A stretch of 64,000 bases of DNA, taken from assembly GCA_963833575.1 (NCBI GenBank), contig CAWHXY010000004.1:384001-448000 (forward strand), read 5' to 3'. The stretch's first letter is position 1, and each line of letters starts with the position of its first letter. The position numbers were made by a program, and so were the translations under genes. The notes beneath the pieces are model-generated. The model saw nothing but the letters and a program-made list of their open reading frames with translations, did not search any database and was not told the origin of the DNA. The stretch is from Candidatus Bathyarchaeota archaeon (GTDB lineage: Archaea > Thermoproteota > Bathyarchaeia > Bathyarchaeales > Bathycorpusculaceae). Below, piece by piece: positions 4,539-48,928 of the stretch.

Positions 4539-5366
4539 ATGAAAGAAGAAAAAGTTAAGAAAATTGTTAGAAATCGTTATGCAAAGGTCGCTAAAACAAA
4601 TGGTTCTTGCGCGGCCTCAAACGTGAGCTGTTGCTCAGCCCCTTCAAACCAGCAGGTGAGTAAAATGATAGGATATAGCGAAGAAGAAATAAATGCAGTT
4701 CCAGAAGGTGCCAATCTGGGATTAGGCTGTGGGAACCCTACAGCATTGGCTTCTTTGAAAGAAGGTGAAAGAATTCTCGATTTAGGTTCAGGTGCAGGGT
4801 TCGATTGCTTTTTGGCAGCCAAGAAAGTTGGCAAACAAGGAAAAGTAATTGGAGTAGACATGACTCCGGAAATGCTTGACAAAGCAAGAGCAAACGCTAA
4901 GAAAGGCAAATACACAAATGTAGAGTTTAGACTAGGAGAAATCGAAAACCTACCCGTTGCCGACAACTCGGTTGATGTCATAATTTCAAATTGCGTAATC
5001 AATCTCGCTCCAAACAAGAAGCGCGTATTCGAAGAAGCTTTCAGGGTTCTTGCTCCAATGGGTCGATTAATGGTTTCGGACATTGTGCTCTTAAAAGAGT
5101 TGCCTGAATCTATCCGAAATAATGTTGAAGCTTATGCTGGATGCATTTCTGGAGCGGAAATCAAGAACAAGTATCTCGAACTAATAAGGAAGGCTGGATT
5201 CCAAGAAGTTAAAGTCATAGAGGAAAAAACATACCCACTTGAATACATCATAAGCGAATCCACTTTGAAAGAAGCTATTAAGATGGCAAGCATGACGGAA
5301 GATGAGGTAAAAGAAGCGGCGAACATTGTGGTAAGCATTAAAGTCTCAGCAGTAAAAAACAATTAG
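4539..5366 (+). CDS. arsM: Arsenite S-adenosylmethionine methyltransferase
   Basis: [34 protein letters not shown] motifs. Confidence 0.93.
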
Positions 5367-5379
5367 CGAGGAATCAATT

Positions 5380-5958
5380 GTGAAACTCTCCCTTCCTGCA
5401 CAAACAATATTGCTCCCTTCTCCAGTGCTGATCATTGGAACATATGGCCCAGATGGCAGACCCAATATTATGACTGCCGCCTGGGGAGGAATAGCATCCA
5501 GCAAACCCCCATGTATTAGTGTGTCTCTCAGGGAGGCGACGCTTAGCTATCATAACATCAAACAGACCGAGGCCTTCACAGTAAATATTCCTTCTGAAAA
5601 GTACCTCAAAGAGGCCGACTTTGTTGGCATAGTTACGGGAAGAGAATGTGACAAATTCAAAGAGACTCGACTTACCGCGGAAAAGAGCAAATTAGTCAAT
5701 GCCCCAATCGTAAAAGAATTTCCATATGCTCTTGAATGCCATCTGGTTAAGAAGGTTGATCTTGGCTTGCACACAATGTTTATTGGAGAAATCGTCGGAA
5801 TGGTCGCTGATAGTGAGGTTCTAAGTCCAAACAAACTTCCAGACATCGAGAAAGTGCGACCTTTACTGTTTGGTTCATTTGGCAGTATGGCATATTATAA
5901 TTTAGGCGACAAACTTGGAGATGCATTCGCAGTTGGAAAAGAAATACAACGGAGCTAA
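5380..5958 (+). CDS. Flavin reductase-like (flavoredoxin) protein
   Basis: PNIMTAAWGG, FTVNIP, ECHL..GLHTMFIGEIV. Confidence 0.88.
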   Translation: MKLSLPAQTILLPSPVLIIGTYGPDGRPNIMTAAWGGIASSKPPCISVSLREATLSYHNIKQTEAFTVNIPSEKYLKEADFVGIVTGRECDKFKETRLTAEKSKLVNAPIVKEFPYALECHLVKKVDLGLHTMFIGEIVGMVADSEVLSPNKLPDIEKVRPLLFGSFGSMAYYNLGDKLGDAFAVGKEIQRS

Positions 5959-6100
5959 ATTTAGCTATGCAATAAGAATTAATCAAAAAAGCAAGTTAAT
6001 TAACTCAATTTTTATAGAAAGGTTATAATTAAGCTGTCGAAGAGAATTATAAAAAGCTTCGCAAATAGCGTTGTTTCAAATGGGACAATACTGTACCTAT

Positions 6101-6130
6101 TTGTAACATAAATGTCACAATACTTATTAC
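6101..6130 (+). promoter_or_regulatory. Near-palindromic operator TTGTAACA-N5-GTCACAA followed by TATA-like ACTTATTA
   Basis: Same motif and TATA spacing occurs upstream of lysW (39531-39561, minus). Confidence 0.55.
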
Positions 6131-6151
6131 AAACCGTAAACTAAATTACTT

Positions 6152-6388
6152 TTGCAGGTCAAGGAGCAAGCTTTAGATGCAATGCATTGAGGCATAGAAG
6201 CGTGCTAGTTGAAACAGCGAAAAATTAGTACGCGGCTAAGATCTTTCCTCAATGGGCTGAACATGTATAGTGTTGGAATCAACTAAGCCGCGAAGCAGCA
6301 GATTCATAACGGCACAAAGAATCTGCAGCGATTAAGATCGCGCTTAGATGGGCCGTAAACAACAATAAGGCTCAGACTTGACCTGCGA
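6152..6388 (+). ncRNA. Putative BHB-flanked structured ncRNA (predicted ~206-nt excised/circular product)
   Basis: Outer stem GCAGGTCAAG(6154-63)/CTTGACCTGC(6377-86), central 4-bp GAGC/GCTC, 3-nt bulges AAG and AGA; several internal hairpins; upstream TATA; no long ORF. Confidence 0.65.
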
Positions 6389-6558
6389 TAAACTAAGTGG
6401 GAAAAAAATAAAACATAAAGTAAATTTAAATTCCACTTTTTTATTCTTAGTTTTTAGGTCAAACATATTCGTTAGTTTTTTTGATCTTCGAAATTCTAAT
6501 ACAAGAGCCAAACCTCAAAGAAAACTATAGCAAAACAAGCTAAGAAATCATAATTAGA

Positions 6559-7491
6559 TTATTTGATTACGAGCTTCTGTGAATGCTTGTCGTGTGCTTC
6601 ATCTGACTCTATTCTTATCTTGAATTCTAAGACTTCATCAAATATCTGTTTTATCTTCTCTTCTACATTAGAAGCTATTTGATCTGCTTCCCTGACAAGC
6701 ATTTCACTGGAAACAACAATATTCATGTCCCCAGTCATGTATGGACCTACCTTTCTCACGCGAATGCTATGTGCTTCCTTAACGCCTTTAACGCTTTTAG
6801 CTAATTCTTCAATTGCACCAATGATATCTCCACAATTGCAAGCATCCACTAGAACTAAAGATGACTCTTTGAATATCGAATACGCGCCGACAAAAATGGC
6901 GCCAGAGATAAAGATTCCAGCAACTGAATCCGCATGCAAGATACCCAAGTACCTGTTAAGTGCAACACCACTAAGAACGGCAATTGAAGAAAGCACATCT
7001 AAAGTGCCGCTGAGCCCACCAACCTTCAGAGAGTTTGAACCAAACTTTTTTGATGCTCTATTAATCCATACAGATACTAGAAGCACGACTATTGTAGACG
7101 CAGTAGCAACTATAATTGCTGTTTCGGCGTTAGTAATTGCTTTTTGTGTCATCCACGCATTGTACGCTTCAAGAAGAATAAAACCCCCAAAAATAGCTAA
7201 AACGAAAGCTGCGATAAGACTCCCAAGAGATTCTATTCGATAATAACCAAAATGGAATGTACCATCAGGTGATCGCCTCGAAAATCTTAAGCCAATCCAC
7301 ACGACTAGAAAGATTATTGATGTTGCGATTGAGTCTATTCCATCGGCCAATAAAGCGACGCTATTAGAGAATAATGCCGCAATAACTTCAGCTATACCGA
7401 CTGCCAAAACTACGAAAAAAGCTATTTGCGCAACTACTGAACTCTTTTTCAGATCTCTTGATGACAAATCTATATCAACCTTGTTCAGCAA
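6559..7491 (-). CDS. Cation diffusion facilitator (CDF/FieF-like) transporter
   Basis: SVALLADGIDS, FHFGYYRIESL, TM helices plus C-terminal dimerisation domain. Confidence 0.9.
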   Translation of the reverse strand: MLNKVDIDLSSRDLKKSSVVAQIAFFVVLAVGIAEVIAALFSNSVALLADGIDSIATSIIFLVVWIGLRFSRRSPDGTFHFGYYRIESLGSLIAAFVLAIFGGFILLEAYNAWMTQKAITNAETAIIVATASTIVVLLVSVWINRASKKFGSNSLKVGGLSGTLDVLSSIAVLSGVALNRYLGILHADSVAGIFISGAIFVGAYSIFKESSLVLVDACNCGDIIGAIEELAKSVKGVKEAHSIRVRKVGPYMTGDMNIVVSSEMLVREADQIASNVEEKIKQIFDEVLEFKIRIESDEAHDKHSQKLVIK

Positions 7492-48247: not shown

Positions 48248-48928
48248 CTAAGTCTCCTTGATTTCGCGCGGCAGATAATCGTATACAATTCCTTTTTGCA
48301 TCGCTCTCTTTAGATAAGCTTCAGGATCAATTTCTTGAACTTTTGCTCGGTCAACGTCAATAATGTAAATTTCGTGTATGCGTGCATTTCGTATTTCTTC
48401 AAGAGTCACAGGAGGTTTTTGGTAATATGCATCGACGAGATTTTTTATCTGCAATATTTCCCAGTCAGCTCTATTTCTTGGCGGCTTAGCTAACGCACGT
48501 GGAAAAGGCAAGATATAATGAGGCGGCACGCCTAAAGCAAATTTTCCAGCAAAACTACTGTACCTTATTATTTTACTTGCTAGACGTGCAGAAGTATATG
48601 TTAATGGTGCCAAAGCGTTTTCGGGAGGAATAAAACCAGTTTCAACTTCAACAATAACATTTCCAAAACCTTTTATAGCATATAAATCGCAAGTTAATAA
48701 CTCATTTAACTGATACTCAATCTGAACGCTGTAGCCTTTTTGAATGAGATACTTAGCACATACAAGCTCCATGACAGAGTGATTAATTTTTACGACATTT
48801 TCTTTTTGCAGCTTTACCAGCCAGTCTTTTAAAATCTTAAGTCCATCTGCAACTTCTTTTTCACTATCAGTTGTTAGCCTCGATAACAGTACCTTCAAAT
48901 CTTGCTCAAACTTTTGCCGGTTACTCAA
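48248..48928 (-). CDS. Conserved archaeal protein, PD-(D/E)XK-like fold
   Basis: CDLYA..IVEVETG. Confidence 0.65.
   Translation of the reverse strand: MSNRQKFEQDLKVLLSRLTTDSEKEVADGLKILKDWLVKLQKENVVKINHSVMELVCAKYLIQKGYSVQIEYQLNELLTCDLYAIKGFGNVIVEVETGFIPPENALAPLTYTSARLASKIIRYSSFAGKFALGVPPHYILPFPRALAKPPRNRADWEILQIKNLVDAYYQKPPVTLEEIRNARIHEIYIIDVDRAKVQEIDPEAYLKRAMQKGIVYDYLPREIKET

Follow-up and report, generated by a model that had tools for sequence, protein, structure and literature searches.

A new family of free-standing genes for structured, probably circular RNAs excised at bulge-helix-bulge motifs in Bathyarchaeia

Locus and processing motif

The window analysed here is a stretch of 64,000 nt (contig 4, positions 384001-448000) from the 2.75-Mb genome of a Candidatus Bathyarchaeota archaeon (GCA_963833575.1, hereafter G000), and its subject is an intergenic RNA element near the start of the window, whose two ends pair into a motif of the bulge-helix-bulge type (BHB). 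The element lies in a 600-nt gap between an open reading frame (ORF) with a flavin-reductase domain (5380-5958, +) and a convergent cation-efflux ORF (6559-7491, -), with a GC content of 0.43-0.46 compared with 0.21-0.33 in its flanks. An initial annotation, made from the sequence alone, had proposed that this is a novel structured circular noncoding RNA (ncRNA) matured through the BHB and transcribed from its own promoter. The gene and the parts of its precursor are the following.

6113-6442, + strand: whole gene, from promoter to T-run; in the best explanation, a stand-alone circular ncRNA gene
6113-6129, + strand: putative promoter, consisting of the block TGTCACAA (6113-6120) and a TATA-like TTATTA (6124-6129), about 25 nt 5' of the outer stem
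6152-6388, + strand: RNA element, intergenic and GC-richer than its flanks
6152-6163, + strand: outer helix h (P1), 5' strand, present in the precursor only; pairs with 6377-6388, with 8 of 10 pairs changed on both sides
6164-6167, + strand: central BHB helix H, 5' strand GAGC, part of the leader that is removed; pairs with GCTC (6370-6373)
6168-6170, + strand: 5' bulge AAG, with a putative cut at 6169/6170; contig pieces start at 6170
6170-6375, + strand: mature RNA of 206 nt, very probably circular, marked by contig depth and a permuted junction
6171-6173 and 6367-6369, + strand: inner helix h', CTT/AAG, 3 bp in G000
6370-6373, + strand: BHB helix H, 3' strand GCUC; in the circle its GC would join helix P1b and its UC the loop
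6374-6376, + strand: 3' bulge AGA, with a putative cut at 6375/6376; the junction letters in contigs end in ...CAG
6377-6388, + strand: outer helix h (P1), 3' strand, present in the precursor only
6396-6442, + strand: downstream hairpin, AGUGGGAA (6396-6403) with UUCCACU (6431-6437), then a T-run (6437-6442); a likely terminator

The outer stem is formed by GCAGGTCAAG (6154-6163) and CTTGACCTGC (6377-6386), and is lengthened to 12 bp by TT (6152-53) and GA (6387-88). All parts of the hBHBh' form are present, namely two bulges with a 4-bp helix, helices flanking them, and the canonical polarity, in which the inner side holds the 5' bulge and the outer side the 3' bulge; the coordinates that the initial annotation had assigned to the outer stem, the 4-bp helix, both bulges and the inner helix all proved correct on the sequence. 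The motif is highly conserved. Of 58 distinct gene copies, 57 have the 3-4-3 arrangement, called only where 4/4 central pairs form, at the aligned place, and among these motif-bearing copies the 5' bulge reads A-N-G in 56, the 3' bulge AGA in 54, and the 3' strand of helix H is GCTC or GCTT in all 57, with an inner helix of 3 pairs in 45 and of at least 2 pairs in 52. Two alignments, one of 25 copies from the same genus and one of 20 short-form relatives from other families, show helix H paired in 100% of cells, its variation being limited to G/A, A/G and C/U facing U, U and G, respectively. One copy (L067, in G159) is degenerate and lacks the BHB motif.

A genome-wide scan of G000 for a perfect 8-bp outer stem, a 4-bp helix and a 3-bp inner helix 60-450 nt apart, a setting that misses weaker motifs, returned the element as its sole match in the window. 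Across the genome the scan yielded 67 matches of true polarity versus 75 of mirrored polarity, that is, no excess, and the broader suggestion that BHB processing is a general route of ncRNA maturation in this lineage accordingly found no support.

The RNA belongs to no class that we could recognize, as had been suspected from the outset. Searches with Rfam 15 produced no match at the gathering threshold over the window as read in genomic order, and at E values of up to 10 over 5950-6600 only chance-level matches, all outside the element; ARAGORN predicted no tRNA within the window. The archaeal RNase P RNA, the archaeal SRP RNA and the 5S rRNA of G000 are encoded elsewhere in the genome and are conventional. 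Nor do the flanks constitute exons forming a tRNA or rRNA, as those of a tRNA or rRNA intron would: they consist of AT-rich DNA between genes, carrying a putative promoter and a hairpin that resembles a terminator.

RNA contigs from peat and wetland

Parts of the stretch were found in 20 public sequencing runs, 6 of which are metatranscriptomes, and four of these, from four studies, were analysed as assembled contigs; the analysed runs include X16, X17, X18 and X20 and comprise peat and wetland metatranscriptomes, in which this is one of the more abundant RNAs assembled at the locus. The element is clearly transcribed, as had been predicted: word depth reaches 34,634 within 6162-6385, and contig depth is 0 in 6050-6161 and in 6402-6500. 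High RNA abundance is thus limited to 6170-6375, with contigs covering only approximately 6170-6379 and leaving the flanks and the outer stem uncovered, and with contig pieces that start at 6170 or 6173 and stop at 6373 or 6379. A tiny depth in 6386-6401 is explained by the aligner extending junction contigs. Contigs at least 99% like the window number 7-9 per run (X17, X20).

Several contigs carry a permuted junction, ...GGCUCAG|GCUUUAG..., in which 6375 is joined to 6170, in X16, X18 and X20. The letters preceding 6170 are ...AAGGCTCAG (X20, n=3; X16, n=2) or ...AAGGCTTAG (X18, n=1), and a wrap-around joint from 6379 back to 6212 through 37 variant letters was found in X16, X17 and X20. The junction word is absent from all copies of the RNA gene in genomes. 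The joint between 6375 and 6170 is precisely the one that had been forecast from the sequence, and it lies at the canonical BHB cut positions. According to a passage of PMC4090602, the first two anticodon bases lie within the 4-bp helix, which places the cut after the second bulge nucleotide; the observed junction positions agree with this rule, the second nucleotide of either bulge being the last before the cut. Both a cut at that position and the joining of the excised ends, as expected of a BHB substrate, are therefore seen, on contigs rather than on raw reads.

The same contigs bear on an alternative reading of the terminal stem. In the genus, the GA columns 13-14 and the AGA at columns 233-235 are nearly invariant, and a C-G pair follows a putative bulge UCA, a pattern that would also suit a linear small RNA with an L7Ae-bound kink-turn built on sheared GA pairs, in which case the likeness to a BHB would be incidental. 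In the 20 short-form relatives, however, the 1n adenine is replaced by G in 2 and the 2n guanine by A in 5, and the U opposite is still standard-paired. Because these variants still pair with the U opposite, a Watson-Crick helix is favoured over the tandem sheared G.A/A.G pairs and invariant 1n adenine that characterize kink-turns, and the segment is, moreover, removed from the mature RNA. The question is settled in favour of the BHB by the RNA contigs, which lack the outer stem and carry the permuted junction; the kink-turn is already contradicted by them and retains hardly any probability.

Whether the permuted contigs reflect a circle depends in part on how they could have come about. The data are contigs only, De Bruijn assemblers and reverse transcriptase can make chimeras, and the two domains of the RNA (see below) are paralogous repeats, so that a linear mature RNA spanning 6170-6375, left by end trimming, might have given rise to such contigs through assembly or template-switching artefacts. 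We regard this as very unlikely, considering that the same junction recurs at the exact BHB cuts, in several sequence variants and in runs of four studies, and that the joined contexts share no 30-mer in the window, which means that a graph with k=31 needs spanning reads. In addition, contigs of 227, 231 and 235 nt are as long as circles predicted at 197-205 nt with 30 nt added. The permuted contigs are most simply read as a circle.

Fold, gene ends and distribution of the family

The excised region contains two paralogous domains, the parts of which are listed below.

6170-6175, + strand: putative closing helix P1b of the circle, 5' strand GCUUUA, with UAAGGC (6366-6371) as its partner and the junction loop UCAG (6372-6375) as its cap
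6185-6254, + strand: domain 1, with P2 (6185-6194/6245-6254), P3 (6200-6210/6223-6233), an A-rich hinge (6234-6244) and the loop CAGC (6215-6218)
6256-6259, + strand: GCUG, proposed pseudoknot partner of the P3 loop CAGC (6215-6218), 100% paired
6260-6274, + strand: tentative linker hairpin P4, AACA/UGUU, 86% paired and with no double change
6280-6350, + strand: domain 2, a paralogue of domain 1, with P5 (6280-6287/6343-6350) and P6 (6295-6305/6319-6329)
6309-6356, + strand: domain 2 pseudoknot, P6 loop ACGGC (6309-6313) with GCCGU (6352-6356)

The + strand folds with a minimum free energy of -84 kcal/mol (z = -4.83; 0 of 200 shuffles fold as well), compared with z = -2.0 for the - strand. Comparison among homologues, the check that the initial annotation had called for, revealed strong covariation in both alignments. 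In the 25 same-genus copies, 94.0% of the cells of 67 pairs are paired, versus 86.1% in shuffles (0 of 500 reach 94.0%) and 30-39% in a control with slid partners, and 37 of the 67 pairs show changes on both sides. In the 20 single-domain relatives, 90% of cells pair, versus 74.2% for shuffles (0 of 500), and 41 of 51 pairs vary on both sides, also within the pseudoknot.

Taken pair by pair, covariation supports five helices and a pseudoknot. Changes on both sides affect 5 of 9 pairs of P2, 7 of 11 of P3, 6 of 7 of P5 and 6 of 10 of P6, and the pairings CATTGAGG/CCTCAATG, GCGTGCTAGTT/AATTAGTACGC and GCAGATTC/GAATCTGC, all read from the single sequence beforehand, were confirmed, the last of them growing to 11 pairs. 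The pseudoknot ACGGC (6309-13) with GCCGT (6352-56), put forward as a possibility, is likewise upheld, with 4 of 5 pairs changing on both sides and 90% of cells paired. The composite stem GGCT..AACAT/GTGTT..AGCC was not confirmed: its inner AACA/TGTT is 86% paired, with no double change, and its outer GGCT/AGCC gives way to a pairing of the CAACTAAG segment (6280-87) with CTTAGATG (6343-50), in which 6 of 7 pairs covary. A further hairpin, GCGAT/ATCGC, is not conserved among homologues and was abandoned. In the genus, the GCUG/CAGC pseudoknot of domain 1 shows one-sided changes only; its short-form equivalent covaries, pair 69-113 being GC in 16 sequences and AU in 4. For P1b, each of the 25 sequences has six standard pairs, and the equivalent pair 25-128 of the short forms changes from U.G to C-G in 4 of 20.

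The domains share a plan of an approximately 13-bp helix, an A-rich hinge of 8-13 nt, which in the short forms has one A facing G-N-N-A-A-A-G-A, and a hairpin of approximately 11 bp. Since the loop of this hairpin pairs with the strand at the domain's foot, the hairpin must fold back along the first helix. The invariant unpaired bases of the family are mostly adenines. Kink-turns at the two domain hinges were considered and rejected, the covarying register of P2 (pair 50-96 of the short-form alignment) being incompatible with tandem G.A pairs. A hammerhead-like loop in relatives, GAAAC..CUGAAGA, was also discarded, since its box order is wrong by inspection and the motif is absent in G000. The circle has little coding potential, with a longest open stretch of 31 codons over four laps.

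Both ends of the gene have recognizable flanks. The same block recurs in the upstream flanks of 51 gene copies, about 25 nt from the stem in all lineages, as tgtc(a/g)caaa..TTATTA within the genus and as gtgcaaaag.cTTATATA among other families, and we infer from this conservation that the TGTCACAA/TTATTA block is the promoter, which would place the transcription start near the outer stem. A 7-nt inverted repeat, TTTGTAA (6100-06) and TTACAAA (6127-33), brackets the promoter box, with an upstream TTTGTA block that is conserved in the genus; this repeat (6100-6133) may be the site of a regulator, the operator of the initial annotation. Downstream, most same-genus copies have GTGGAA...TCCAC followed by T6-8, and other lineages have T-rich sequence. 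In the window, RNA contig depth is absent at the hairpin (6396-6442), which the terminator scan did not call because its loop is too long. A bacterial-style small RNA with an intrinsic terminator was dismissed as a category, the organism being an archaeon.

These flanks are relevant to the question of which product is under selection. The element might be an intron, with the leader-trailer hairpin or a downstream mRNA as the selected product and the circle as a by-product or a regulator of that mRNA; a 5'-untranslated-region (5'-UTR) BHB intron of this kind is described for HVO_1309 of Haloferax in a passage of PMC7714728. Several copies in G040 and G179 have a Shine-Dalgarno-like GAGGTG and a start codon within 20-50 nt, and in three loci of family f23 a large same-strand ORF starts 49-84 nt downstream. 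However, the next gene in G000 is convergent, and 44 of 51 loci have no same-strand ORF of at least 80 aa starting within 100 nt 3' of the gene (7 of 51 do). Furthermore, it is within the excised part that covariation and the invariant unpaired adenines are found, the leader is free to vary provided that pairing is kept, and RNA depth is confined to the excised part. The intron reading is quite unlikely. At three short-form loci (L068, L071 and L072, in G179 and G040), GAGGTG and the start codon of a small ORF lie within 20-50 nt 3' of the gene, and there the element would act as a 5'-UTR BHB intron; by eye, the small ORFs look dodecin-like and cold-shock-like.

The family is patchy in its distribution. 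Within the genus, blastn detected copies of the element, 68-85% identical and 1-3 per genome, in 19 of 24 further genomes. A covariance model (R1) finds one copy in G000 and matches in 25 of 151 sampled Bathyarchaeia genomes, belonging to 13 of 79 genera, and has no match among 131 genomes from the phylum's other classes. When 185,579 species genomes were scanned for the motif, 46 stretches were returned, of which 38 were confirmed by a single-domain model (R2); all 38 are archaeal by title (36 Bathyarchaeota/Bathyarchaeia and 2 "uncultured archaeon"), and none of the 8 bacterial stretches was confirmed by R2. As judged from these searches, the family is found only in Bathyarchaeia. Weak copies escape the fast filters; with filters off, weaker variants appear in further families, with the same ends and a different, longer interior.

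The domain is modular. In many relatives the gene is only ~138 nt long, keeping the outer stem, the BHB and one domain, and R2 recognizes both halves of the two-domain forms as well as three places in G013, where the locus L016 (1295-1612, -) has an extra duplicated 5' domain and a predicted circle of 289 nt. The predicted circles measure 106-111 nt (21 copies, one domain), 124-135 nt (5 copies, a variant domain), 192-207 nt (30 copies) and 289 nt (1 copy, three domains).

Compact pseudoknotted domains with invariant unpaired purines, some of them directly 5' of ORFs, could be ligand-sensing, riboswitch-like aptamers that are present singly or in up to three tandem copies and work in cis or in trans, and singlet and tandem arrangements both occur here, as they do among glycine riboswitches. 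Yet no class of downstream gene recurs among the 51 loci, as would be expected of a riboswitch or cis-acting leader, no Rfam aptamer matches, and circularization takes the RNA off any mRNA; riboswitches are not known to be circular. An aptamer is thus a highly improbable identity for the RNA. Still less credible is a selfish or mobile RNA element, whether in the form of a mobile BHB intron or of a viroid-like replicon that also exists as DNA. Such an element would account for copy numbers of 1 to 5 per genome, a patchy occurrence among genera, circularity and very high abundance, but every copy comes with a conserved promoter and a terminator-like end of its own, the loci read showed neither flanking repeats nor a transposase, the synteny with one protein gene is deep, and purifying selection acts on structure in an RNA without any ORF longer than 31 codons.

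Proposed biogenesis, known systems and a candidate partner

The genome of G000 encodes proteins of the EndA family (PF01974) at two places and RtcB (PF01139) at one, so that the organism possesses both the endonuclease and RtcB expected for a BHB substrate; the two EndA-family ORFs suggest a heteromeric endonuclease. ARAGORN predicts 45 tRNAs in this genome, 8 of them with introns. In the biogenesis that we propose, the conserved archaeal promoter would drive a transcript from near 6152, probably to the T-run after the downstream hairpin, and the ends of this precursor would pair into the 12-bp stem followed by the canonical BHB (AAG bulge, GAGC/GCUC, AGA bulge, CUU/AAG). The splicing endonuclease would cut each bulge after its second nucleotide, and RtcB would join G6170 to G6375, producing a circle of 206 nt. 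With the leader gone, the freed GC of the central helix would re-pair with G6170-C6171, so that the circle would be closed by GCUUUA/UAAGGC under a junction tetraloop, UCAG (or UUAG), holding the ligation site. The BHB helix GAGC/GCUC and the helix GCUUUA/UAAGGC compete for the same GC, and each is 100% compatible with every sequence; the two pairings are reconciled if, as this putative helix switch implies, the BHB forms in the precursor and P1b after excision. The mature circle would consist of two tandem paralogous fold-back pseudoknot domains, its relatives having one, two or three.

In its biogenesis and architecture, the element is thus very likely a 206-nt circular ncRNA excised at a BHB and ligated, the product of a stand-alone gene; the enzymes, the covalent closure, the helix switch and the function are what we infer beyond the observations. 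The core of the original proposal, a novel structured circular ncRNA made through a BHB from its own promoter, is supported because no Rfam family matches, covariation is strong, transcription is high, and the predicted junction is present in contigs.

Several observations weigh against this interpretation. The RNA data consist of assembled contigs, in which strand, ends and covalent closure are not visible, and many of the contigs come from relatives, 13-22 placed contigs per run being less than 90% alike. In 5 of 57 copies the inner helix is down to 1 standard pair, so that the strict hBHBh' form is relaxed there, and because the BHB helix and P1b use the same GC, covariation cannot tell them apart. 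The restriction of the family to 25 of 151 genomes and 13 of 79 genera argues against an essential housekeeping role, with the reservation that the fast filters miss weak copies. With respect to the protein considered below as a partner, its gene was found in 74 of 151 genomes, among them 27 of 27 genomes of family f24, where the RNA was found in 1 of 27, and in G000 it lies 42 kb from the RNA.

The closest known counterparts are the archaeal circles excised at BHBs, namely tRNA and rRNA introns and the pre-16S and pre-23S intermediates, which, according to PMC4090602 and PMC7714728, share the motif, the cut positions and the end-joined circle. Unlike in these cases, there is no host tRNA or rRNA gene here, the "exons" amounting to a stem of ~18 nt on each side, and the excised part is itself a conserved, covarying product with its own promoter. 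The permuted SRP RNA of Thermoproteus (PMC4731332) likewise comes from a dedicated ncRNA gene and reaches its functional form through BHB cleavage and circularization; it is, however, a universal RNA with a rearranged gene order, whereas the RNA described here has no known relative. The 5'-UTR BHB intron of Haloferax volcanii HVO_1309 is also a substrate other than tRNA or rRNA that was found circular, but it is an mRNA leader of a single species (PMC7714728), in contrast to a class-wide family with a conserved fold and, mostly, no same-strand gene after it. Together with one mRNA (PMC7714728), HVO_1309 and the permuted SRP RNA (PMC4731332) make up the BHB substrates beyond tRNA and rRNA in these sources. 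Full-text searches and passages of PMC12918454 and PMC7714728 contain no description of the RNA, which the supplements of circular-RNA surveys might list.

A few members of the family (in G040 and G179) lie directly 5' of ORFs and thus resemble the HVO_1309 case. In animals, the tRNA splicing endonuclease and RtcB produce stable circles, the tricRNAs, which derive from tRNA genes and are not known to possess a conserved fold; the family described here differs in being a free-standing gene with a covarying, pseudoknotted architecture. In Bathyarchaeia, a major group of uncultured archaea in soils and sediments, it constitutes a new family of free-standing genes for structured circular RNAs excised at BHBs, and it would add a class-wide gene family whose sole evident purpose is a highly structured circular RNA. 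Archaeal circular-RNA biology would then include dedicated genes, beyond processing by-products. The family also offers a natural, compact and modular circular RNA scaffold, an apparent precursor-to-product helix switch within a BHB, and a testable candidate protein partner.

This candidate is a protein of 210-226 aa, whose homologue in G000 is located as follows.

48248-48928, - strand: homologue of the neighbour protein, 226 aa, Bathyarchaeia-specific, 42 kb from the RNA

Of the 23 sampled genomes with both genes, 12 have the gene of this protein in divergent orientation next to that of the RNA, and it adjoins the RNA in 24 of the 38 motif-scan loci, mostly ~100 nt away, as well as 5-6 of the weak variants; these counts are not independent, because the sets overlap and are related. 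No second copy of the RNA was found beside the protein gene of G000. The protein matches no Pfam family. Its AlphaFold model is confident (pLDDT 87, pTM 0.84), and Foldseek retrieved PD-(D/E)xK-fold nucleases alone, weakly (best E 2.6e-3), as did a search of the Atlas. This neighbour protein is a candidate partner of the circle.

In type III toxin-antitoxin systems, ToxI-like pseudoknot repeats inhibit a neighbouring nuclease. The family resembles these systems in placing a variable number of pseudoknot modules beside the gene of a nuclease-fold protein; in contrast to them, the gene pair is divergent and not co-transcribed, the RNA is circular and presumably long-lived, and the protein is widespread without the RNA and PD-(D/E)xK-like rather than ToxN-like. 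As to function, we tentatively entertain, as a possibility short of an expectation, that the circle serves as a modular scaffold or decoy for protein binding, built from one to three copies of a compact, nuclease-resistant module. A more specific role, as dedicated RNA subunit or regulator of the PD-(D/E)xK-fold protein in a circular-RNA/nuclease ribonucleoprotein (RNP) with one protein unit per domain, appears unlikely; if true, the one-, two- and three-domain forms would set the stoichiometry of a new kind of RNP.

The surroundings of the RNA gene vary. In the window, its neighbours are genes for a class I methyltransferase and the flavin-reductase-domain protein (4539-5958, +) and for a cation efflux protein of the CDF type (6559-7491, -), the last of which adjoins the RNA also in the closest relative (L023) and does not do so in 12 others. 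In seven loci of one family (L048, L049, L052-L055 and L043), a convergent ORF of ~490 aa ends 11-57 nt past the RNA gene; by its N-terminal motif, we take it to resemble an ATP-dependent DNA ligase. The gene order at these loci is nuclease-fold protein, RNA and ligase-like ORF.

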